Of a stretch of DNA of 32,000 nucleotides, positions 1,425 through 23,988 are shown piece after piece (position 1 is the first letter of the stretch; every line of letters starts with the position of its first letter). The position numbers and the translations under genes are program-made. This stretch comes from Candidatus Saccharimonadota bacterium. Lineage in GTDB: Bacteria > Bacillota_I > Bacilli_A > Mycoplasmatales > Hepatoplasmataceae. The notes beneath the pieces were generated by a model. It worked only from the letters and a program-made list of their open reading frames with translations, made no database searches and was not told the origin of the DNA. The stretch covers positions 330,001 to 362,000 of the forward strand of contig NZ_CP006932.1 of assembly GCF_000582535.1 (NCBI RefSeq), in the 5' to 3' direction.

Positions 1425-2132
1425 TTAATTTTTATTTTTTAATTTTTTCTTTATTTCTTTTTTCATTTTTCGATTTTCTTTAGTTTCATTATAAATAACA
1501 ATTATATTGCTTTTATGCTTATAAATAACAAGAATAAATGATAATCATAAAATAGCAGAAGCATTTATTGTTCTTGATCAATCAAATAATGGTCAAGCTG
1601 AATTAAGCAAAGGATTAAATGTTCCTAAAATTGTAATTGCAAAAACAGCCCCTAATGAAGAATATGTAACTGTTCTATTTGTTGAAAAATAAATAATTAA
1701 AAAAATAATTCCTCCAATTGCACAAAAAATTCAATTAATTGCTAGCATTAAACCAAAAGTTGTTGCTACACCTTTTCCACCTTTAAATTTAAATCAAATT
1801 GGTCATAAATGACCAACTATTACAAAAAAAACAGCAATAGCTATATAATTTGTTACTGCCATAAAAATATTATCACCATTATTGTAATCTAAATTTTCTG
1901 ATAATTCTGTAAATATAATTGCAACAATGAAAGCTTTTAAAAAATCAAATAAAAAAACAAGAATGAAAGCCTCTTTTCCAAAAGTTCTTCCAGCATTTGT
2001 TGCTCCGTAATTTTTAGAACCAATTTCTCCTAAATCAACTTTTTTATATCGTGAAATTAATTGACCAGCATTGATTGATCCAACAAAATAAGCAATTATA
2101 GAATATAATAATAGTCCTAAAAAAACTTCCAT
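1425..2132 (-). CDS. plsY: glycerol-3-phosphate acyltransferase PlsY (235 aa)
   Basis: The N-terminal fragment 1803..2132 (MEVFLGLLLYSIIAYFVGSINAGQLISR...GSKNYGATNAGRTFGK) continues past the in-frame TGA at 1803-1805 as WPIWFKFKGGKGVATTFG... and ends at TAA 1425-1427. These are classic PlsY blocks. Confidence 0.9.
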
Positions 2133-2309
2133 TTTATTTAAATTTATTTTTTATATTATATATTAATAAATTGATATAGTTATATAGAGATAAAATTACA
2201 AAATGATAATTAATATGGATAATTAATATTTAAAATTGTGTAAAATTATATTTATAACGTTCAATTTTAAATTAGTAATTTTAAGAGAAAGGCAAAATAG
2301 TTTTTCGTA

Positions 2310-3203
2310 ATGAATAAAACGATAGTAAAAGACAAAAACAAAAAGAAAAGAAATTATTGAGATTTAATTGCAATAAATAAAAAATATCGTAATTGAAAAA
2401 CAATTTTATTAGCAGAATTAATAGGTACATATTTACTTACACTTTGAATAATTCTTCCTTCATCAGTTAATTTTGATAGTATGAATAATTGATGAGGTTA
2501 TATTTGAAGTCTAATGATTATGAAAGCTCTTTGAGTTGCTGGATTTATAGTTTTCATTGTTTATGTTTTAAGATATATTTCAGTTAATTTAAATCCTGCA
2601 GTAACTATAGGAGAAATAGCAAAAGGAAATGATAAATTACCAATTGGAATAGCAAAAATAAATGTGCAATTTGTTGGTGGTATAATGGCTGGGTTTACTG
2701 GTTTAGGTCTTGCTATCTTAACTGATAACAATTCTTCAACATTAGATGCAATAAGTCCAATTGTAAGATGAAATGATTGAAGTAATATTGGATCTATGGG
2801 ATGATATGATAATCCAATCGCATCTAAAAATTATGCTGACTTTAATGGGGGTCAGGCTGCATTTGTTGCTTCTTCTATGGTATTAGAATTTTCTTATACT
2901 TTTGCTTTACTTGCTAGTGTATTTTATTGAGAGAAAAAAGTAAGTCATAATATGAGACCAATTGTAATTGGACTTATTGTTTGACTTGTGGTTACATTGG
3001 GAGTGAGAACAAATAATATTGCTCTAAATCCAGCTAGATTAGTAGGCCCAGCAATCGCTCAAACAGTAGGAGTAAATGCAGGATTTTTAACAAATAATAT
3101 AAATTACACAGATTGAATGTGAGTTTATCTAGTTAGTGAATTTGCAGCAGCAGCATTATTTGCAATGATTGAATTAAATAAATCAAAGAAACTAGAAATA
3201 TAA
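2310..3203 (+). CDS. MIP-family channel (aquaporin / glycerol facilitator-like, 297 aa)
   Basis: ATG 2310 to TAA 3201-3203. It is absent from the standard-code track because it contains many TGA=Trp codons. Two NPA boxes (SVNLNPAVTIGE and IALNPARLVGPA) and about 6 hydrophobic helices are present. Confidence 0.85.
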
Positions 3204-3220
3204 AAAAGAAAAACAAAAAA

Positions 3221-3246
3221 ATCTAACAGTTACTTGTTAGATTTTT
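3221..3246 (+). terminator. intrinsic terminator hairpin after the MIP gene
   Basis: Perfect 8-bp stem atctaaca/tgttagat (3221-3228 / 3235-3242) with loop gttact. It can extend by A/T pairing with the upstream A-run, and is followed by TTTT (3243-3246). Confidence 0.6.
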
Positions 3247-3323
3247 CATTCTTGATTATAAAATGAGAAAATTATATTAGTATAAAGGGTTTAATTTTGT
3301 AAAGAATAATTAAGAAGGGAAAA

Positions 3324-4907
3324 ATGAAACTAGCGAAGATTTATATTAAAAGATTTAAAAATATTGAAAATTTAGAAATAAATTTTGAGAAATATAAAAA
3401 TCTTATAAGTATCATTGGCTTAAATAATATTGGCAAAACAAATATTTTGGAAGCCATTTATTTTTTTGAAACTTTAAAAATTCGAAAATTACGCAAAAAT
3501 GAAGAAAAATTTCAAAATGTAAGTTTCTTTTATAAGTTAGAAGAAGATGACCAAAGAAATTTTGATGATTATTTTTTAGAAATGAAAATGCAAAATCAAA
3601 ATAAAAATAAAACAATTGAGAAAAATTTAAATGAAAAACACGAAAAGACAGCTGATAAGACATACAAAAAAAGCATAACAAATTGAGATAAATTACAAGA
3701 ATTTGAAATAACTGTAGGATGAGATGATGAAATAAGAGATTATGTTAGATTTTTTCCAGAAGAAATCACTGATTCAAAATATTTTTATAAAAATATATAT
3801 GAAAAAAATAAATTTAGAGTATTTTATTTTGATAAAACACAAAAGAAAGATTTTTTGGAAAATCAATTCTTTATTAAAAGTAAAATTTTTCGAAAAATTT
3901 TAAAAAGTATTAATCATGATCATTTTATTAAAAATTTTTATAAATATAACGATATTGAATTAAATATAGAAATTGGAAAAATCGAAAAAGCAATTAGTAC
4001 TTTTTTATTTAGTAATTGAAATGATCGTGAAAATGAAAAATATATTGTAAAATTAATTTTACTTGATCGTAAATTAGGAAAATTTTCTTTAATTATAAAT
4101 AATAAAAATAATAAGAAAAATACATTTCAACCTGAAGAAAGTAGTGATGGATTAATATCAATTATTTTTATGAAATTATCAATTGGAGAAACTTTTTTCA
4201 AAAGATTGATTTTAATTGATGAACCGAATACTTTTCTCCATTCTTTAGCACAAATTAATTTACTAAATTATTTTAAAAGTATTATTACAAAAAATGATTG
4301 TAAGTTAATTTATACAACTCATTCTGAGCATCTTGTCGATTCAGAAATTCCAATAATTTATAAAAATAAAAATAATTGAGAAATTAAAATTATAAAAGAT
4401 ATTAAAGAATATCAAGATATTCAATTAAAAGTATTAGCTAATAATTTATTAATAAATAATCCAATTAATTTAATTTTAAATAAGGAAAAAGATTTCTATA
4501 AATTTATTGAATTTTATAATAAAAAAGAATATAAAATGTCTCTTACTTTCATACATACATTACTTGAAAAAGAGATTAATATTTTCATATATAAATTAAA
4601 TTTGAAAGATAAAATTACAAGTAAAAGTACTATATATGATAAATTAAAATTAATATTCGAAAAAGTAGAATTAGATAAAATAAAAATTAATCTTCCAATT
4701 GAAAAACAATTAATTGAAATTATTAAAAATAATTTTAAAAATTCATTATATCTTGCTTCTTTTCGTAACAAAGCAAGTTATGCTCACATTAATAATATAA
4801 AAGATCGCGATCTTGAAAATATAATTCCTATTGTGATCCTTACTTATCTTGCAAATATTGAATTTTTAAGAAGATTTCGCGAAATTGCTATTGATGGCAA
4901 GAAATAA
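3324..4907 (+). CDS. ABC/SMC-like (OLD / AAA_15-type) ATPase fused to a C-terminal helical domain with an R-x6-H HEPN-like motif (527 aa)
   Basis: Track ORFs 3324..3686, 4170..4379 and 4536..4907 share one frame. The only intervening stops are TGA (3684, 3720, 4017, 4377). Motifs: Walker A GLNNIGKT within IIGLNNIGKTNILEAIYFF (3417-3440); Walker B/D-loop RLILIDEPNTFLH (4203-4241); H-loop LIYTTHSEHLV; C-terminal FRNKASYAH (Arg codon 4764, His codon 4785). A GAAGGGA Shine-Dalgarno-like element lies about 6 nt upstream of the ATG. Confidence 0.8.
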
Positions 4908-5838
4908 GAATCATTTTTGCAATAAATAATTGATAGTTTATACGATTGGAATTAGATTTAAAAGAAATAACAATTCCAATTAATTTATTTAAAATTTTAT
5001 TTATATAAAAATAACTATAATTATTTGCATTTTCAGTCATTTTTTTTAATCTATAATTATTAAGTTTCAATTCTAAAAGAGGGGTTTTATCTTCAATTTT
5101 GAGATTATAATAATTTTTTATTATAAGAATATATTGTAATTCTTTTATTAAATATTCAAGTATTAAAACAGGAGAAATATTATTTCCTTTTAAAAACAAA
5201 AGAATTTTATAAATATTTTGTTGATCTTTTTCAAGTAGAGCATCATATAATTTGAATATATTTTCACCAACATAATCATAAATAATTAAATTTAAATTTT
5301 TTAAATATTTTTGTTCTTTTATCAAAAATAATTTTTTTAATTCATTATTTAAAATATCATAATCATATTTTGTATATCTTAATAATTTTCTTAGGTCATT
5401 ATAACTAAGATAATAATTATTATCTTTTAATTTTTTATTTAAAAAATTAAAAAGCTCTTTTTTATCTGGTTTTTTGATAGAAATTAATTCTAATTTTCTC
5501 TCTTTTATAAATTTAATAATAAAATCATTTTTATCATTAAATTTATTAGTACTTAAAATTAAATAATTATCAATATTTGTATTAAAAAATTTTTCTAATT
5601 TAATTATGAAATTTTTATTTATTATTTTTTTTTGCAAAAAAATACAATTATTTAAAATTACTAATTTTTTTTCTCCAAAAATAGAATTACTTAAATATTG
5701 ATCAAAAAATTTATCAAATTCATTTTCTTCAAAATCAAAAATATAAATATTTTCTTTTTTAAAATTAGCAAAATTTATAATTTTTTCAATTTCTTGTTTT
5801 TTGATAAAAAAACTTTCTGATTCAATAATATATTTCAT
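4888..5838 (-). CDS. holA: probable DNA polymerase III delta subunit (HolA-like, 316 aa)
   Basis: Single uninterrupted ORF. Its length and pattern (IYIFDFEENEF, SIFGEKKLVILNNCIFLQKK, then a C-terminal helical region) resemble HolA of low-GC Gram-positives. The call rests on weak motif recognition only. The 3' end overlaps the convergent ATPase gene by 20 nt. Confidence 0.5.
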   Translation of the reverse strand: MKYIIESESFFIKKQEIEKIINFANFKKENIYIFDFEENEFDKFFDQYLSNSIFGEKKLVILNNCIFLQKKIINKNFIIKLEKFFNTNIDNYLILSTNKFNDKNDFIIKFIKERKLELISIKKPDKKELFNFLNKKLKDNNYYLSYNDLRKLLRYTKYDYDILNNELKKLFLIKEQKYLKNLNLIIYDYVGENIFKLYDALLEKDQQNIYKILLFLKGNNISPVLILEYLIKELQYILIIKNYYNLKIEDKTPLLELKLNNYRLKKMTENANNYSYFYINKILNKLIGIVISFKSNSNRINYQLFIAKMILISCHQ

Positions 5839-5891
5839 ATTAATACTATTATAAATTATTTATAATTTATAAAAACAAGATAACAATAAAA

Positions 5892-7211
5892 ATGAAACGA
5901 ACCATTTTAACAATAGATGTTGATGCTTTTTTTGCTCAAGTAGAAGAAATTAAAAACATAAAATATAAATCTAAACCAATTGCAATTGGTAAAAAAATTA
6001 ACGGAAGGGGTGTTGTTAGCACTTGCAATTATATTGCTCGTAAATATAATGTTTATTCTGGACAGCCTATTTTTAAAGCACAAAAAAGTTGTCCAAATTT
6101 AATTTTAATAGAACCTAATTTTAAAGATTACACTAATTATTCTGAAAAAATTTTTAAAATCATTAATAGTTTTTCTAATATTTTAGAAATATCATCAATT
6201 GATGAATGTTATCTTGATATTACAAAATTAATTACAGAAGAAAAAAATCCTTTTTATTGAGCTAAAAAGATTCAATCAACTATTTTTAATAAATTAAAAA
6301 TTACTGTATCTATAGGAATTTCTAATCGCAAAGTTCTTGCTAAAATTGCATCAAAAATCAAAAAACCCTTTGGTATATATTCTATTTTTCAAAATGAAAT
6401 AAAAGAAAAATTATGACCACTTCCAATTGATACATTTCATGGAATTGGATTACAAACTACAAAAAAATTTAATAATTTAAATTTAACAAAAATTGAGGAC
6501 CTTGCAAAATTAAAAGCAAAAGATCAATATGTAATTTTGCGAAAACAAATTGGAAAAAACATTGATCTTTTAATAGATGAAGCAAATGGAATAGGAGAAG
6601 ATAGCTTAGAAAATAAAGAAAAAGATCTTAAATCTATTTCTGCTCATAAAACTTTTCAAAATACTATTTTTGATTATGAAAATTTAATAAATGAATTAAA
6701 AGAATTAGTAAATAAAATAGTACAAAAACTTAATTATCGTAATCTTACAGCTCGTACTGTATTTTTAGTAACTAAAAATCGTAAAAATTTAAATAATGTA
6801 GAAAACACAATTGAAAAAGCAATATTATTAAGAAAAACACAAAGTAAACGAATTTTATTAGATCATTATGAAAATCAATATGAGATTATCTATTCTTATG
6901 CTTTAAAATTATTTGATAATTATTATAATGAAAATGGAATTGATTTTTTGGGAATTGGATTAGCTGATCTTAAAGATAAAATTTACATAAAAAAGCAACT
7001 TAAATTTGATCAATATTTTGAAGATAATTTTATAAAAAAAGAACAATCAATAATAAAGGAGGACAATTTAGATAATTTAATTTTAAATATAAATGGTTTT
7101 TTTAATAATAAAATTTTGATAAAAGGAAAATATCTATTAAAAGAAAACAAATATCAAGACAAAAGATTTTCAAATCGGGATCAAATTAAATTTAAAACAT
7201 GAGGAAAATAA
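5892..7211 (+). CDS. dinB: DNA polymerase IV (Y-family, DinB; 439 aa)
   Basis: ILTIDVDAFFAQVEE...KPIAIG..., then after the TGA at 6258 WAKKIQ...ITVSIGISNRKVLAKIASKIKKPFG...LPIDTFHGIGLQT. Fragments 5892.. and 6537.. are in the same frame. The TGA at 7200 is read as Trp and the true stop is TAA 7209-7211. Confidence 0.9.
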
Positions 7212-7213
7212 TA

Positions 7214-7939
7214 TTAATTTTTATATGAATTAAGTAATATATTTCTTTTATGATTACTTATTTTATTATATATTTCAATTTTATTTTTTATTTCTGAACT
7301 TACACTTTTTTTATCTTCTCAATATTTTTCAAGATCAGAATATTTAAATCCTAATTCATTTTCATCAGTTTGTCCATATCAAAGATCTGCACTTGGTTTT
7401 TGATTAATTAATTTTTCATCTAATTCTAATAATTTTGCAATTTTATATATTTCTGATTTTTTAAAATTAGCAAGAGGAAAGATATCAGCTACTCCATCTC
7501 CTCATTTTGTAAAATATCCCAGATATATTTCTGAATAATTTGAAGTACCAACAACAAGATAATTATTAATTTTTGCATAAGCATAAATTGTATTCATTCT
7601 TAATCTTGATTTAATATTACCTTTTACTTCTTTTTCTGCTTTTTTTATAAAATTTAAATCATCTATAAATTGATTAAAACTTTTATTTAAATTTACTATT
7701 TCCTTTTTTATTTTAATTTGTTTGATAATTTTATTAAAATTTGTAAAAGATTCTTCTGATGAATCAATATCAATAAATAATCCTGTTGAATTATCTGGAA
7801 ATGCTAATTTAGCAAGCGAAGCAGCAACTGCACTATCTATTCCTCCAGAAATTGCAACACAAAGGCCATTTGCTTGTGCTTTTTTTACTTCTTTTCTTAA
7901 TCAAAATATAATACTCTCAATTTTATTTTTTGTTATCAT
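7214..7939 (-). CDS. nadE: NH3-dependent NAD+ synthetase NadE (241 aa)
   Basis: The minus-strand translation from ATG 7939..7937 reads MITKNKIESIIFWLRKEVKKAQANGLCVAISGGIDSAVAASLAKLAF...GTSNYSEIYLGYFTKWGDG... This includes the SGGIDS PP-loop and the NadE blocks. Stop is TAA 7214-7216, 2 nt from the convergent dinB stop. Confidence 0.9.
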
Positions 7940-8672
7940 TTTCTATTCTAGTATTAGCCTTTTCTGTTTTTCTTGTCTTTTCCATTTTTAATCTAACAGT
8001 TTGCTTATTTTTTTCTTGTATTTTTTTTTCTGAATTATTTGAAATTGTTTTTTTATTTCCAATTTTATTTATTTTATTATTTTCATCTTTTAAAAATCTA
8101 AATTGTTTTTTAAATTCATCATTTTCAAATTTTAATGTTTTTTGCTTTATTCTTGATTTTTTTAAAAGAACTTTAGTTTTCTGTAATTTATCATCTCAAA
8201 GTCTTTTTTCCTCTTTTAATTTTTCAAATTCTTCATTTATTTTTAGATCAGATTTATATTTTTTTTCAGTTTCCCTTAATTTTGAATTTAATTTTAAAAT
8301 TTCTTCATCTTTAAAATTAATTATTTGATTAATTTTTGTTATTTTTTCTTTTGCTTTTTCTAATTTTTCAATAATAAAATCTTTTTTTAATAACTCATTT
8401 TTATCAATAAAATTATTTTCAAGAAAATAAAAATAAATTAAACTAATTGCATTTGTAATACATTTTGTAATTTCTTTTTCATTTATTAACATTTCTTCTA
8501 AATTATCTATTTTAAGAAATTGATGGATTAATCTTTCAATTCCATAAATAATAATTTTTAAATTATGATTGGTATTTTTTTTTAAATTTTCATCATTAAA
8601 AATGTCTTTTAATAATTTTTTTGTTTGTCTAAGATGACTTAAAAGTTTTTTATTTTCAGTTTTGTTGGTCAT
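7923..8672 (-). CDS. hypothetical Lys/Glu-rich coiled-coil protein (249 aa)
   Basis: Track ORF 8196..8672 continues through TGA 8196-8198 in frame to TAA 7923-7925. The composition is heptad-like and K/E/N-rich. It overlaps the nadE start by 17 nt, suggesting translational coupling. Confidence 0.6.
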
Positions 8673-8742
8673 AATAATATTGATCCCTTAAAATTTATAA
8701 AATAAAATTTAGACAAATATAAACGTCTAAATTTTTATAATT

Positions 8743-10239
8743 CTATTTTTTCTTTTTATTTAAAATATTATTAATCTCATTTAATTCTTCTTGGATTGTT
8801 CTAATTATTTCATCATCACTATCACTATCATCATAATCATATCTTGTGTTATTTATTCTTTTTCTTTCTACTCTTCTTGTAGATTTTAATAAATTATTTT
8901 CTTCTCTAACACCATTTTCAATTTTATTTACCTTATTAGATAATTTTTCAATTTCTTTTTCTAAAGAGAGAAGAATATTTTCCATTCGATTATTTTTTTG
9001 ATTTGATCTTTTATCAATATTATATTTTTCTTTATATTTTTCTTCGATTTCCCGTTCAAGTTGTTGACGTGCAATTTGTTCAGTATTTTGTCTTACTAAT
9101 CTTAAATTTTCTTCTTGTAATTTTTTTAAATTATCAAATTCATGATCGAGTGAACTTTTAAAATAATAATCATCATAATATTTATCTTTATTATAATTAC
9201 TATTATTATTTTGACCTTGATGATAATAATTTTCCCGTTGATATTTTAAACGATTTAATTCTTCATTTTCTCTTTTTAATCTTTCTAATTCATCTTTTTC
9301 ACGCATTATTTTTAGATATCTTAAATTACTTTCCTCTTCATCATATTTATCATCATATGATTTTTTACGTCCTCTTTTAGATTCTTGCTCTTTTTCAGCA
9401 CGTAAATTTTCAAGTTCTTTTTTTAAAGAGTCTTGTTCACTTTTAAGAATATTTAATAATTCTCTTTCTTGTTTTAAAATTTCAAGCTCTTGTTTTCGTG
9501 ATTCTAAATTTTCAACATTTACTTCAATTGTTTCTGGTTCATCTATTCTTTTTTCAATAGTTTTTTCTGAACTAATTTCTTCTTCAACTTGTTTTCTAGC
9601 TAATTCCAATGCTTCTTTTTCCGTTTGTTCTTTTGTTAATTCTAAACGTTTTTTCTCAAAATTTAATTTTTCTTGTTCTAATTTAAGTCTTTCTTTTTCA
9701 AGTTTAATTTCTTCAGAATCTTCTTTTATAACTATTTCATTTTCATTTTGTGGATTAGCATTTTCTTTTATTTGTTCTATATTATTAACTTTTTCAATAT
9801 TTTTATCTTCTTCAAAATTATTTACAGGTTCATTAGTTACTTCTGGTTCTTTATTACCTTCGCCTTGCTGTGTTTTCATTTCTTCTATCATTATTAATTG
9901 TTCAAGACGATTTATAGAATATTCTTCAGGATTTTTAATTCCAAGAGCAAGTGCTTTTTCAATTAATTTTGCTTGATCTTGATTATTATCTGTAAAATTA
10001 TTATTTGAAGATTTTGTTTTTTCTAATTTTTTACGTTCTTTTTTGGAAATTTTTTGCTTTTTTTCTTTTTTGGGATTTAAAGAAAACTCATCTTCCATTC
10101 CTGCTAATTTTGATTTTGTCTGTTTTTTCTTAATTATTCTATTTCTTAATTTACGATTTTTAAAAAAAATTATAAGTAAAAGCGTAAGGAACAACAAAAA
10201 AATAAAAATCAATACAATTAATGCGATCATTAATGGCAT
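8743..10239 (-). CDS. N-terminally membrane-anchored long coiled-coil protein (498 aa)
   Basis: Single uninterrupted ORF. It has one N-terminal TM helix (MPLMIALIVLIFIFLLFLTLLLIIFF). The following ~470 aa are highly charged E/K/Q/L-rich sequence (EKERLKLEQEKLNFEKKRLELTKEQTEKEALELARKQVEEE). The C-terminus has an acidic DYDDSDSDDE patch. Confidence 0.75.
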   Translation of the reverse strand: MPLMIALIVLIFIFLLFLTLLLIIFFKNRKLRNRIIKKKQTKSKLAGMEDEFSLNPKKEKKQKISKKERKKLEKTKSSNNNFTDNNQDQAKLIEKALALGIKNPEEYSINRLEQLIMIEEMKTQQGEGNKEPEVTNEPVNNFEEDKNIEKVNNIEQIKENANPQNENEIVIKEDSEEIKLEKERLKLEQEKLNFEKKRLELTKEQTEKEALELARKQVEEEISSEKTIEKRIDEPETIEVNVENLESRKQELEILKQERELLNILKSEQDSLKKELENLRAEKEQESKRGRKKSYDDKYDEEESNLRYLKIMREKDELERLKRENEELNRLKYQRENYYHQGQNNNSNYNKDKYYDDYYFKSSLDHEFDNLKKLQEENLRLVRQNTEQIARQQLEREIEEKYKEKYNIDKRSNQKNNRMENILLSLEKEIEKLSNKVNKIENGVREENNLLKSTRRVERKRINNTRYDYDDSDSDDEIIRTIQEELNEINNILNKKKK

Positions 10240-10380
10240 ATTGTTTTCTCAAACATTTTGTCAATCCACACCTAAAGTTTGTGAATGCATAAGATTTAAT
10301 GTTAATATTTTTAAACTCATAATTTTTATTATATCACGCAATTATTTTAATAAAATAAATTTTTATCTAAAATAAATAGC

Positions 10381-14639: not shown

Positions 14640-14720
14640 TTCTCTTTCCTCCAAAGACTCACCCTTTTTGGTAGTTTATAACTTTTAAAACCTAAAGGAG
14701 TGGTTGTTGTAAGATAATTT
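14640..14720 (-). promoter_or_regulatory. possible structured 5' leader of the rplU-prp-rpmA operon (L21-leader-like)
   Basis: This is a locally GC-enriched stretch immediately upstream of rplU. On the minus-strand RNA, CACUCCUUU can pair with AAAAGGGUG (8 of 9 pairs, including a G-U) across a ~25-nt loop, just 5' of the GGAGG Shine-Dalgarno. Ribosomal-protein leaders are known at this operon in Firmicutes. No covariance model was run. Confidence 0.25.
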
Positions 14721-19664: not shown

Positions 19665-20702
19665 TTAAATAGTTTTTTTACTTTTAGATAAGATTAATCC
19701 AACACTTCCTAAAAATAAAATATAAAAATAAGGAATTATAATATAAGCAGATCATAATAGACATTTGAAACTAAACATTTGATACTTAAATAAAACTCAT
19801 GTACTAGGATTATTTATATCAATTATAATTTGATCATTAGGAAGATTTATTCCTGGAAGAGTAATAGTTACATAACGAAAAGTATCATAAAGCATATCAA
19901 ATTGTCCTCATTTTGTAATTCAATAATAAGGATTTATCATCTGCATAAAATTACGAAATGTAAATGTATTAAAATATCTTTTTTCAATTGAAATATTTCG
20001 ATCAAAATAAGGTTTAAAAGTAATAATTTGACTTTCTTGATTATAGCTATATAAAATATCATTTGGATTACTACTTGGAGTTGGATTGAAAAAAATATCA
20101 ACTTCTAGTGTTCCTGAAAACATAATAAAAATAATAAATAAAAATATTGAAATTAAAATAAAATTAGCAAAATTTTTACTTAAATTTTGAATTAAAAAAG
20201 CAAGAACAAAAGTAATTAAGAAAATAATAATAAGATAGTAGATAAAAATTCCTCATCGATAATCAGTAATATTTCTTATTTGATAATGATGATCAGGAGA
20301 GTTTCAACTAGAAATTGCCATCAAATCTAATTGCATAAAAATAAAAGTAATAAATAATGTAACTAAAAAAGTAGCAAATGCTACAATTATTAAATTTAAA
20401 AATATCGGAAGATATATATATAATTTATTATTAACTTTTTGTTTTACTAATATATAAAAATGAGACCTACGAAAATTAAAAAAAAGCATTCCATAAAAGA
20501 TAAATACATTAAATACAATTGTAAATGCAAATACACTATCAATTACTAAATAAGAGGGAAAGCTTGTATAAAAAGCAATTGTAAATATAAGAGGAACAAA
20601 TAATATTAATATATAAAATCAAAATGACAAAATCATTTTTCTAAAATATAGAACTGTAAGATTTATTCAATTTATATTTCTATAAATTTTAAAAATTTTC
20701 AT
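19665..20702 (-). CDS. paralogous 6-TM membrane protein, copy 1 (345 aa)
   Basis: I translated the full length under code 4. MKIFKIYRNINWINLTVLYF...FNFRRSHFY...DYRWGIFIYY...SNPNDILYSYNQESQIITFKPYF...FTFRNFMQMINPYYWITKWGQFD...LPGINLPN...NPSTWVLFKYQMFSFKCLLWSAY... ending at TAA 19665-19667. All internal stops are TGA. Confidence 0.85.
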
Positions 20703-20760
20703 TTTTTCAAATTATAAAAAAATTATATTAAACATAATTATCATATAATACTTCTAATTA

Positions 20761-21807
20761 TTATATATTTTTCTCTTTTTTTGCAATAAAAATTCCTAAA
20801 AAACCATAAAACAAAATGAATAAATAAGGAACCAAAATATAAGAAGACCACAATAAACATTTAAAACTAAACATCTGATATTTAAATAAAACTCATGTAC
20901 TAGGATCATTTACATCAATTATTAATTGATTATTAGGAAGACCTATTCCTGGAAGAAGTAATGTTGTATTACGATAATTATTAAAAAGCATATCATATTG
21001 TCCTCATTTTGTAATTCAATAATAAGGATTTATCATCTGCATAAAATTACGAAATGTAAATTTATAAAAATACTTATTTTGAATATTTAATGGATCATTA
21101 CGATTAAAATAAGGTTTAAATGTAACAATTTGACTATCTTGATTATAACTATATAAAATATCATTTGGATTGCTACTAGGTACTGGACCTAAAAAAGCAG
21201 AAATTTCTAAAGTACCGGAAAAAACAACAAATAAAACAAATAAAAAAATTGAAATTATCATAAATCTATTAAAAGTTTTACTTAAATTTTGGATTAAAAA
21301 AGCAAGAACAAAAGTAATTAGGAAAAAAATAATAAGATAATAGATAAAAATTCCTCATCGATAATCAGAAATGCTTCGAATATGATAATAATGATCAGGA
21401 GAATTTCAACCAGGAACTGACATTAAATCAAATTGAAGAAATAAATATGTAATAAAAAGAGTAACAGTAAAAGTAAAAATTACAACTATTATTAAATTCA
21501 AAAAGATCGGAAGATAAACATATATTTTATTATTATTAAATTTTTGTGTTATTAATATATAAAAATGTGATCTTCTAACATTAAAAAATAAAATTCCATA
21601 AAATATAAGAACATTAAATACAACAGAAAAAGCAAATACACTATCAATTACTAAATAAGAAGGCGTATTCGTAAAAAAAGAAATACAAAATAAAAAAGGA
21701 ATAAAAATTACTAATATATAAAATCAAAATGATAACATCATTTTTTTAAAATAGAGGTTAGTAAGATTTACTAAATTTATATTTTTTTCAAAATTAAAAT
21801 AATCCAT
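20761..21807 (-). CDS. paralogous 6-TM membrane protein, copy 2 (348 aa)
   Basis: I translated the full length. MDYFNFEKNINLVNLTNLYF...FNVRRSHFY...DYRWGIFIYY...SNPNDILYSYNQDSQIVTFKPYF...FTFRNFMQMINPYYWITKWGQYD...DPSTWVLFKYQMFSFKCLLWSSY... ending at TAA 20761-20763. It appears about 70% identical to copy 1 by eye. Confidence 0.85.
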
Positions 21808-21855
21808 TTTTTATAGTAAAATAATTATCTGAATAATTTGATTCCTTTTATTATT

Positions 21856-22899
21856 TTAATTATGATATATTTTCTTTACTTTCAAAATTATAATTCCTAA
21901 AAAACCATAAAATAAAATAAAAAAATAAGGAAGAAAAAGATAACAAGATCATAATAAACTCTTAAATGAAAACATTTGATATTTAAGTAAAACTCATGTA
22001 TTAGGATCACTTGCATTTATTATTAACTGATCATTTGGTAAACCAATTCCTGGAAGCATAATTGTTGTAATACGATAATTATCAATAAAAATATCAAATT
22101 GTCCTCATTTTGTAATTCAGTAATATGGATTTATCATCTCTAAAAAATTACGGAATGTAAATGTTCTAAAAAATTCTTTCTCAATAAAATAGGGATCATT
22201 ATAATCAAAATAAGGTTTAAAAGTAATAACTCGATTAACAGGATCATAACTATATAAAAGATCATCAGGATTATTACTAGGTACTGGATTTAAAAATATA
22301 GTTATTTCTAATACTCCCGAAAAAAAGAAAAAAAAGACAAATAAAAAAATTGAAATTAAAATATAACTATTAAAACTCCTACTTATCGCTTGAATTAAAA
22401 AAGCAAGCATAAAAGTAATAAAAAAAATAATTGCAATATAATAAATTAAAATCCCTCATCGATAATCCGAAATATCTTTTATTTCGTAATAATGATCTGC
22501 ATTAGTTCAATTTGCGATTGCCATCCAATCTAATTGCATAAAAATAAAAGTAATAAAAAGGGTAATTAAAAAAGTAATAATACTAACAATAATTAAATTT
22601 AAAAATAAAGGAATATAAATAAATAATTTACTTTTAAATTTTTGTTTTACTAATGGATAAAAATGTGATCTACGAAAATTAAAAAATAAGATTCCATAAA
22701 AAATTAAAACATTTAATACAATTGTAAATGCAAATATATCGTTAATTGTAAGAAAAGCTGGTAGGATTGTATAAAAAGAAATTGATATCATTAAAGGAAC
22801 AAAAATCAGAAAAATATAAAATCAAATTGATAAAACCATTTTATTAAAATAAAATGAAGTAAGATTTATTCAATTTATATTTCTACTATTTTTATTCAT
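21856..22899 (-). CDS. paralogous 6-TM membrane protein, copy 3 (347 aa)
   Basis: MNKNSRNINWINLTSFYF...FNFRRSHFY...DYRWGILIY...NNPDDLLYSYDPVNRVITFKPYF...FTFRNFLEMINPYYWITKWGQFD...DPNTWVLLKYQMFSFKSLLWSCY... ending at TAA 21856-21858. One frame, with only TGA interruptions. Confidence 0.85.
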
Positions 22900-22932
22900 C
22901 TAAGCTTTAAAATTTATTTCTATAATAATACT

Positions 22933-23988
22933 TTAATTATGATATATTTTTACTTTCTTTGTAATTATAATTCCTAAAATTCCGTAGAAAAAAACAAAAA
23001 TATAGGGAACAAAAATATAACTAGATCACAATCAATTTGTAAATGAAAACATTATATAATCATATTTTACTCATGTACTAGGATCATTAGGATTTATCGA
23101 TATTGGATCTATTCCAGGAAGTGTAAGTGATGTAGTTCGATAAAAATCAACAAAAATATCAAATTGCCCTCATGCTGTAAGATAATAATAAGGATTAAAC
23201 ATCTGAATAAATCGATAAACGGAAAAATCTGTAAAAAATCTTTTATCATAAAAATCTGGATCATTACGATCAAAATAAGGTTTAAAAGTAAGAACTTGTG
23301 TATTTTGATTGTAACTATATAAAAGATTATCTTCTGTTCCTTCTTTAAATCTTGGTGTATCAAATGCAGAAACTATTCCAAAAGTACCAGAAAAAAGAAT
23401 TTCAAGAATTATTATAAATAAGCAAAATAAAAGATATGTATTAAAATTATTACTTAAAGTTTGAATTAAAAAAGCAAGAGTAAAAGTAACTAAAAAAGTA
23501 ATTATTAAATAATAAATTAAAAGCCCTCAATCAAAATCTTTAATATCTTTTATTTGATAATAATAATTATCATTATATGTTCAAGTTTGCAAAAATAATC
23601 AGTCTAAACTTTCAAATATTGCAAAAAAGCAAATTGCAATAATTGTTGTAAATATTACAACAATTATTAAATTTAAAAAAATGGGAAAATAAATAAGAAT
23701 TTTTCGATCATTAAATTTCTGACTAATTAAAGGATAAAAGTGTGATCGATGAAAATTAAAAAATAAGATTCCATAAAAAAGCAAAACATTAAAAATTACA
23801 GAAAAAGTAATTACACTATCTATTACCAAAAAATCAGGAGTTTGTGTAAGGAAAGAAAAACAAAATAAAAAAGGAACAAGAATAACTAAAAAATAAAACC
23901 AAAAAGAAAAAAACAATTTTTTTAGAAAAAAAACTGTAATTTTATTTAAATCTAAATAATATAAAAAACTTGTTTTTTCTTTTCTCAT
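22933..23988 (-). CDS. paralogous 6-TM membrane protein, copy 4 (351 aa, most divergent)
   Basis: MRKEKTSFLYYLDLNKITVFF...FNFHRSHFY...DFDWGLLIYY...EDNLLYSYNQNTQVLTFKPYF...FSVYRFIQMFNPYYYLTAWGQFD...LPGIDPI...DPSTWVKYDYIMFSFTNWLWSSY... ending at TAA 22933-22935. The start lies 36 nt downstream of the nrdF stop. Confidence 0.85.

Follow-up and report, generated by a model that had tools for sequence, protein, structure and literature searches.

A single gene read in genetic code 4

The window analysed here is a stretch of 32,000 nucleotides of contig NZ_CP006932.1 (assembly GCF_000582535.1, positions 330,001 to 362,000, forward strand) from Hepatoplasma strain Av. Positions 3324-4907 of its plus strand carry, in frame 1, a single intact gene of 527 codons plus TAA in genetic code 4, called the AAA_15 gene below. 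Over the BLAST alignment, its product is 100% identical to a protein annotated as 'AAA family ATPase' in Candidatus Hepatoplasma crinochetorum. It joins a predicted ABC ATPase to a helical C-terminal region for which a HEPN identity is plausible, as judged from a short motif and from structure models. The features of the gene are the following; omega is the ratio of nonsynonymous (dN) to synonymous substitution rates.

3324-4907, plus strand: complete coding sequence (code 4; omega 0.12-0.18; full length in orthologues)
3684-4379, plus strand: span of four TGA codons read as Trp (W121, W133, W232 and W352; TGA in 5 of 5 orthologues)
3324-4379, plus strand: predicted ABC ATPase domain of AAA_15/OLD type (residues 1-352)
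3504-4103, plus strand: helical insert rich in K, N, E and F between the ATPase lobes (residues 61-260)
4380-4535, plus strand: three-helix linker (residues 353-404; model helices 360-377, 380-384 and 388-399)
4536-4904, plus strand: terminal four-helix unit, a HEPN-like candidate effector (residues 405-527)
4764-4787, plus strand: candidate HEPN catalytic motif R481-N-K-A-S-Y-A-H488 (R-N-x5-H), invariant in five orthologues

The frame contains four in-frame TGA codons (3684-3686, 3720-3722, 4017-4019 and 4377-4379), no TGG, and TAA as its sole stop. With table 4, long, tightly packed contiguous genes are obtained across the entire window, which has 21.5% GC. The earlier note on this DNA, made from the sequence alone, had recognised that the apparent small open reading frames are one gene. 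This is correct; however, it counted three segments where the four TGA codons give five pieces in code 11. That split is the only feature recalling a pseudogene in decay or a set of several small genes, a reading with practically no chance of being right: it is refuted by the use of code 4 throughout the genome and by five full-length orthologues that contain no internal stop, keep the same four TGA-Trp sites and evolve with an omega of 0.12-0.18. Within the variable insert, codon 146 (3759-3761) encodes Pro in the strain Av window and Thr in the public protein P0001 (643,039-bp assembly).

By its sequence, the segment comprising residues 1-352 is an ABC ATPase of the AAA_15/OLD type. Pfam AAA_15 (PF13175) matches residues 1-338 over the complete profile (1-374 of 374) with E = 1.5e-18 and 68 bits against a gathering cut-off of 32.1, and AAA_21 (PF13304) comes second (E = 5.6e-11, 43.5 bits against a cut-off of 27). 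The Walker A motif G32-T39 (nt 3417-3440, with K38), the signature-like S273-S-D-G276, the Walker B/D-loop at residues 294-306 (from nt 4203; L295-ILIDE300, H306) and the H-loop at residues 331-336 (TTH333) are invariant in 5 of 5 orthologues. Both the OLD/AAA_15 assignment proposed in the earlier note and the full set of ABC/SMC motifs that it read in the N-terminal ~350 residues are thus borne out, every quoted motif being present. Since these motifs are invariant, an active ATPase is expected. The catalytic core has 77% invariant columns among the five orthologues while the insert, the most variable part of the protein, has 56% (dN 0.19-0.24 as against 0.02-0.11 elsewhere).

The top PADLOC models (AriA, Old, ATPase-Toprim, PtuA, mad3, GajA and AbiLi) are all ATPases of defence systems. 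Their matches cover the ATPase part only and none extends beyond about residue 368. AriA gives the best profile match (E = 4.4e-18), and there are further matches to several PtuA models. The AriA model PDLC02979 looks like a generic AAA_15 profile, because it covers the same residues 1-338 and ends at profile position 373 compared with 374 for Pfam. A RecF orthologue was considered and rejected: RecF TIGR00611 matches residues 4-104 only (E = 3.8e-10), its 39.5 bits lie far under the equivalog cut-off of 172 bits, and the motifs of the C-lobe (IDEPxxxLH, TTHS) are of the AAA_15/AAA_21 type.

The C-terminal region and its candidate HEPN motif

Residues 358-527 are all-helical in both of two independent AlphaFold2 runs. 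One run used the full-length protein on a 3-sequence alignment and gave a mean predicted local distance difference test score (pLDDT) of 34.5, which makes it unusable; the other used the C-terminal domain alone and gave a pLDDT of 55.5 with a predicted template-modelling score of 0.52, so that its tertiary arrangement is unreliable. The proximal part is the linker, which together with residues 1-60 forms the most conserved segment of the protein and is even more invariant than the catalytic ATPase core (94% against 77% of the columns). Synonymous conservation is ordinary there (0.55, compared with 0.58 gene-wide), indicating that the constraint acts on the protein; a hidden nucleotide-level feature beneath residues 353-404 was rejected on the same ground, as the synonymous sites are not conserved. 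The distal part is the terminal unit, with helices at residues 407-424, 437-447(/450), 458-478/481 and 494-523 in the two runs. The constraint on the C-terminal domain as a whole equals that on the ATPase core (dN about 0.11 for both), which implies that the domain has a function.

At the sequence level, relatives of residues 353-527 were detected only within a narrow clade of Hepatoplasma. Comparison of the region with Pfam, PADLOC, NCBIfam and PHROGs gave nothing above threshold, and an exhaustive search of 1.84 billion cluster representatives with a HMMER profile of residues 340-527 recovered its own cluster only. Three queries against PDB sequences returned ATPase-core matches or compositional noise; scans of genome, viral and metagenome contigs gave no confirmed relative, their back-translated patterns being of low complexity; and tblastn against phages and plasmids found only matches of 45-62 amino acids over Walker B and the H-loop. 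Once the low-complexity insert is removed, the closest matches beyond Hepatoplasma are four AAA_15 proteins of ~600 amino acids (P0124-P0127, E = 5e-7 to 4e-4). Their alignments are confined to the Walker B-H-loop segment, and their own C-termini are TOPRIM-like (VEGKxD...DxD). In Hepatoplasma the effector position is thus filled by a different, orphan module.

TOPRIM, HNH and other nuclease profiles do not match the C-terminus even at E <= 10, and neither do Toprim_OLD and DUF4435 at the same limit. The earlier statement that this region is not of TOPRIM, HNH or PD-(D/E)xK type therefore agrees with every profile, but the accompanying statement that it lacks a DxD does not hold: D494-x-D496 is present. 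It is the sole DxD of the region, both Asp residues are invariant, and it lies inside a predicted helix with no TOPRIM-like context. A DxD is expected in 35% of shuffles.

The invariant R481-N482-x5-H488 is followed by an equally invariant D494-x-D496-L-E498-N499. HEPN domains are defined by an up-down four-helix unit, often with an acidic residue in helix 2, and by an Rx4-6H motif in which a polar N, D or H follows the Arg, with a 6-residue spacer in some families (PMC3710099). The Hepatoplasma motif obeys this rule and its placement fits the definition (PMC3710099): in the low-confidence models R481 ends helix 3 of the terminal unit and H488 falls within the segment connecting helices 3 and 4. 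Predicted helix 2 contains invariant D439, E446 and E449, none with K/R at +4. The reading of Arg481...His488 as a HEPN signature thus stands in so far as the motif is present and invariant; however, Rx4-6H alone is not rare (it arises with P = 0.15 when the C-terminal region is shuffled), and the stricter R[NDH]x3-5H has P = 0.024 in C-terminal shuffles and 0.037 per 175 amino acids in the proteins of the window. The Abi_C profile, which corresponds to the HEPN domain of AbiJ (bioRxiv 10.1101/2024.07.02.601686), gives a sub-threshold match to residues 451-494, including the R-N-x5-H, in 1 of 3 orthologues (E = 0.046, 14.3 bits against a cut-off of 24). This lead and a second one to Csm6_6H (E = 0.011-0.035) were downgraded, as equal or better scores were obtained by noise (MinC, FslA, JetB, Cas5b).

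Neighbourhood and distribution

The gene follows a MIP gene and is followed by a convergent holA and then by dinB and nadE. Its flanks contain three features.

3217-3246, plus strand: AT-rich hairpin in the spacer between the MIP gene and the AAA_15 gene (13-bp stem, 4-nt loop, A-tract/T-tract arms)
3313-3319, plus strand: Shine-Dalgarno-like AGAAGGG, 4 nt 5' of the ATG, conserved in a four-species intergenic alignment
4888-4907, both strands: convergent 3'-end overlap of 20 nt between the AAA_15 gene and holA (holA at 4888-5838, minus strand)

The hairpin at 3217-3246 folds as RNA with -14.4 kcal/mol (z = -4.94; none of 200 shuffles is equally stable) and its stem is kept across four species. 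It is probably a bidirectional intrinsic terminator. The strong upstream terminator described by the earlier note is therefore real and conserved as a hairpin, but it is AT-rich and was not detected by a G+C-based terminator scan. Immediately 3' of it, positions 3247-3323 show good interspecies conservation (TATAAA(A/G)TGAGAAAATTATAT..., and the Shine-Dalgarno-like AGAAGGG); a sigma-70 consensus scan of the same interval flagged no plus-strand promoter. At the other end, the 20-nt overlap with holA had been correctly described and is conserved at 20-26 nt in the relatives L001-L004. Synonymous conservation is raised, to 0.78, over the last ~30 codons of the gene.

No partner, antitoxin, methylase or restriction-modification gene is adjacent to the AAA_15 gene, as had been noted earlier, and the surrounding 8-10 kb of the window and of L001-L004 contain no AriB TOPRIM, PtuB HNH or AbiLii gene. 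An Rfam scan found no family in or near the gene. The only Rfam family in the window is an L21 leader at 14645-14715 on the minus strand (37.3 bits, gathering score 36), upstream of an rplU - Prp-like - rpmA operon. Elsewhere in the window, positions 19665-23988 of the minus strand encode four tandem paralogues, polytopic membrane proteins of 345-351 amino acids with 48-70% mutual identity. They share an N-terminal 'INWINLT..YF.KM.LSFWFYIL' and represent the local expansion of a gene family in a genome that is otherwise minimal. At 7923-10320 on the minus strand, two hypothetical proteins rich in Lys and Glu (249 and 525 amino acids) have no Pfam match and evolve far faster than their neighbours (omega 0.33-0.69).

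The locus is conserved in six genomes or contigs, always at the MIP-holA site and with copies of 527-529 amino acids. The carriers are strain Av (the window), a second crinochetorum assembly, Candidatus H. scabrum (L001), strain Ps (L003) and the Logan contigs L002 and L004. Four Hepatoplasmataceae lineages at a greater distance (DinB identity 40-44%), Candidatus Tyloplasma litorale among them, lack the gene near dinB and holA, with no detectable remnant there. This comparison, which the earlier note had proposed as a check, indicates that the gene is clade-specific and not a universal housekeeping orthologue; it is accessory at the family level. In three of these more distant relatives (L005, L007 and L008, compared with window 1425-7211) plsY adjoins dinB directly in divergent orientation, whereas in the crinochetorum/scabrum clade the block formed by MIP, the AAA_15 gene and holA separates the two. 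The present neighbourhood of the gene is therefore a clade-specific rearrangement. Among the genes of the neighbourhood, omega is 0.12-0.18 for the AAA_15 gene and for MIP, 0.14-0.23 for dinB, 0.16-0.25 for plsY, 0.30-0.43 for holA and 0.28-0.52 for nadE.

Other genes were observed at the corresponding loci of relatives. A small defence-like cluster occupies positions 1-7132 of L007 (Logan SRR26065853, a Hepatoplasmataceae relative), ~2-3 kb from plsY. It includes GmrSD (1-2256) and a Fic/Doc gene (5167-5694) that adjoins an AAA_21 ATPase (5705-7132, 475 amino acids). The AAA_21 and Fic pair was rejected as a distant homologue since only the Walker A region is in common. In H. scabrum and strain Ps, genes for large RCC1/WD40_RLD-repeat proteins of 664-881 amino acids (L001 1-2760; L003 158-2161) precede the locus by a few kb. 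These eukaryote-like repeat proteins of an extracellular symbiont may be host-interaction factors.

Interpretation and relation to known systems

The AAA_15 family is used almost exclusively in conflict systems. Here a conflict-type ABC ATPase is combined with a constrained C-terminal domain that carries a motif of the HEPN type, and no partner gene accompanies it. This leads us to favour, tentatively and at somewhat less than even chances, a one-gene, ATP-gated ABC-HEPN-like conflict effector, an RNase that would serve in abortive infection or a similar conflict. In such a protein the ATPase heads would dimerise on ATP while the variable helical insert would sense a trigger, possibly foreign nucleic acid, a phage protein or a change in the nucleotide pool. 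The change would be relayed via the near-invariant linker and would release or pair the terminal four-helix units, where R481, N482 and H488 could make a metal-independent RNase site. This site would then cleave tRNA or mRNA and stop translation. In this model we infer that the C-terminus adopts a HEPN fold and acts as an RNase, that the ATPase gates it and that the protein serves in defence. In the nucleotide-gated, one-gene RNase proposed by the earlier note, the single gene, the ATPase and the lack of a partner are confirmed, but HEPN identity and a defence role were not established. For the C-terminal HEPN domain itself, the motif and its placement at helix 3 fit, but neither the fold nor a profile match could be established. 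Calling the gene a defence gene likewise goes further than the evidence, its sole basis being the habit of the AAA_15 family.

Several observations weigh against an ABC-HEPN effector. Within its clade the gene has the traits of a resident core gene and not those of a typical mobile defence gene: its omega is under that of holA, nadE and plsY, its GC and GC3 match those of its neighbours, every Trp codon is TGA, and its synteny among housekeeping genes is fixed in six genomes or contigs. Phages, plasmids and insertion sequences are absent from the genome (PMC3942034). As for the HEPN domain, the R-N-x5-H motif alone has a chance expectation of 2-4%, so that its fit is weak evidence, and the conservation of R481 and H488 is uninformative because 71% of the surrounding columns are invariant too. 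None of the HEPN-family profiles in Pfam, PADLOC and NCBIfam reaches threshold, and the Abi_C match is within noise, the same segment matching the unrelated MinC (E = 0.0044), FslA (E = 0.0064) and JetB (E = 0.059). An exact Ex3[KR], a trait of many but not all HEPN families, is not present in predicted helix 2. The structure models are of low confidence (pLDDT 34.5 and 55.5), and the search for a HEPN core by modelling and Foldseek, which the earlier note had suggested, was negative: no HEPN is among the best 50 matches in PDB and BFVD (best E = 0.25 and 0.28, TM <= 0.34), and the structures returned are helical bundles of a generic kind, for example PA28 and MCP 4HB. These negative Foldseek and profile results are themselves weak, given the poor model and the fact that HEPN domains often evade sequence searches. 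The proven Abi HEPN domains of AbiJ and AbiB have HHpred E > 0.1 (PMC13064643). The defence genes listed for Hepatoplasmataceae in a 2024 comparative paper are restriction-modification and CRISPR-Cas9 only (PMC10928387). Their retention implies that phage pressure exists, which counts in favour of the effector, as does the accessory distribution of the gene in the family.

The core-like behaviour of the gene is what would be expected of a housekeeping ABC ATPase for genome maintenance, an analogue of RecF, RecN or SbcC whose helical tail would be a non-catalytic module for DNA or partner binding or for oligomerisation, kept because the reduced genome depends on it. The holA/dinB neighbourhood is the same in every genome that carries the gene, the gene is never disrupted, its composition is that of the host genome, its omega (0.12-0.18) is tighter than that of three neighbours, its N-terminal 100 residues are RecF-like (TIGR00611; GKTNILEAIY), no nuclease fold is detected in the C-terminus, and the gene is missing from the family's published defence list (PMC10928387). 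We nevertheless regard this explanation, the main rival of the ABC-HEPN effector, as rather unlikely. The RecF score is far too low and confined to one end of the protein, the C-lobe motifs are those of AAA_15/AAA_21 and the best full-length match is AAA_15. Moreover, four lineages of the family are without the gene near holA and dinB, and no homologue of it occurs elsewhere, which is not what a housekeeping function would show. The neighbourhood is the product of a rearrangement and is not an operon, since holA is convergent and dinB lies beyond holA. A further explanation, likewise rather unlikely, is that the C-terminal 175 residues form a new effector or coupling fold (neither HEPN nor TOPRIM nor HNH) in place of the nuclease of an OLD-type ATPase, or that a defence-type OLD/AAA_15 ATPase has been domesticated for an indispensable housekeeping task in a minimal genome. 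Domestication would explain a conservation tighter than that of the adjoining gene for the DNA polymerase III delta subunit.

Other readings change the nature of the C-terminus. It could be a novel metal-dependent module that replaced TOPRIM in an OLD-like, ATP-driven nuclease with a DNA rather than RNA target, and still with a role in defence or conflict. The cluster H488-x-N490-x3-D494-x-D496-L-E498-N499 is invariant in five orthologues, the usual partners in this family are metal-dependent DNases (TOPRIM in OLD, GajA and AriB, HNH in PtuB), and the pLDDT of the segment is below about 55. However, no nuclease profile matches even at E <= 10, the segment is helical in both models rather than adopting the beta-beta-alpha or alpha/beta arrangement that such sites need, and a DxD arises readily in shuffles; this reading seems quite improbable. 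Still less can be said for a sensor or scaffold ATPase of the AriA/PtuA type, with an effector that is encoded elsewhere or lost and a C-terminus serving for docking or oligomerisation, which we judge very unlikely. The best PADLOC profile is AriA, with PtuA models behind it, ATPases of this type act with a separately encoded nuclease, and no catalytic fold is recognised in the C-terminus. Against this, a candidate partner is adjacent in 0 of 6 loci, the AriA model appears to be generic, and it is difficult to see why the C-terminal 175 residues should be under strong selection if no partner is linked to them.

Fusions of an ABC ATPase to an effector recur in prokaryotic immunity, and each new swap of the effector shows the modularity of this design. 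The setting is unusual here: a genome of roughly 650 kb, without mobile elements, of an uncultured woodlouse gut symbiont, in which the gene is fixed, has a host-like composition and is under a constraint above that of housekeeping genes. If the ABC-HEPN suicide nuclease is real, it would show that even minimal extracellular symbionts keep a costly one-gene abortive-infection module beside CRISPR-Cas9. If the protein is not such a nuclease, an OLD-type ATPase has gained a new lineage-specific function together with a domain without known relatives. In either case, one gene labelled 'AAA family ATPase / hypothetical' in Hepatoplasma genomes would receive a better annotation.

Several known systems resemble the favoured ABC-HEPN effector in part. 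OLD and Gabija GajA have the same ATPase pattern (GKT...SxG...IDEPxxxLH...TTHS), the helical insert between the lobes and the C-terminal effector position. However, their effector is a TOPRIM domain (alpha/beta, with Glu and DxD), whereas the Hepatoplasma protein has an all-helical C-terminus and no UvrD/GajB-type partner; lacking TOPRIM, it is not an OLD nuclease. PARIS AriA, Septu PtuA and AbiLi give the top PADLOC matches for the ATPase part only. They work with a separate nuclease gene, but AriB, PtuB and AbiLii are absent from 6 loci here and the protein has an extra conserved domain of 175 amino acids. RecF is alike over the N-terminal 100 residues, including GKTN(I/L)LEAIY, and replication and repair genes are neighbours of the Hepatoplasma gene. 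Unlike RecF, the latter has the additional 175-residue domain and is not conserved across Mollicutes. The Abi_C match to AbiJ includes the R-N-x5-H, but it stays in the noise band at 14.3 bits against 24, in 1 of 3 orthologues, and PADLOC gives no AbiJ match. HEPN domains of the AbiJ type are modular, with interchangeable N-terminal modules, and belong to a network in which ABC ATPases also occur (PMC3710099; bioRxiv 10.1101/2024.07.02.601686).

The closest design is that of the anticodon nucleases RloC/PrrC and of APECO1_4465 and ERFG_01251, which likewise combine in one polypeptide an N-terminal ABC/Rad50-like ATPase with a C-terminal helical module bearing an Rx4-6H-type motif and have no antitoxin. 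The PrrC/RloC-type architecture invoked by the earlier note does not extend to family membership, since three marks of that family all fail. Pfam AAA_13, which we take to be the PrrC/RloC profile, is not among the Pfam matches at E <= 10. PrrC is part of a type I restriction-modification operon, whereas the neighbours are here MIP, holA and dinB. RloC contains a long coiled coil with a CxxC zinc hook, whereas the Hepatoplasma protein has one Cys and no CxxC. Furthermore, the Hepatoplasma gene does not sit in a mobile island but is a fixed component of a reduced symbiont genome, passed on vertically, and its HEPN fold is putative. RloC and APECO1_4465 also act without a linked restriction-modification system, and ABC-ATPase-HEPN fusions have several independent origins, some without restriction-modification partners (PMC3710099). 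By analogy, we propose that the AAA_15 protein may follow the design of the ABC-ATPase-HEPN proteins with other parts, an OLD/AAA_15 motor and an orphan helical C-terminus in place of the TOPRIM nuclease. Similar ABC-ATPase fusions are thus already known, and the Hepatoplasma case would add to them an OLD-type ATPase with an orphan, possibly HEPN-like domain.

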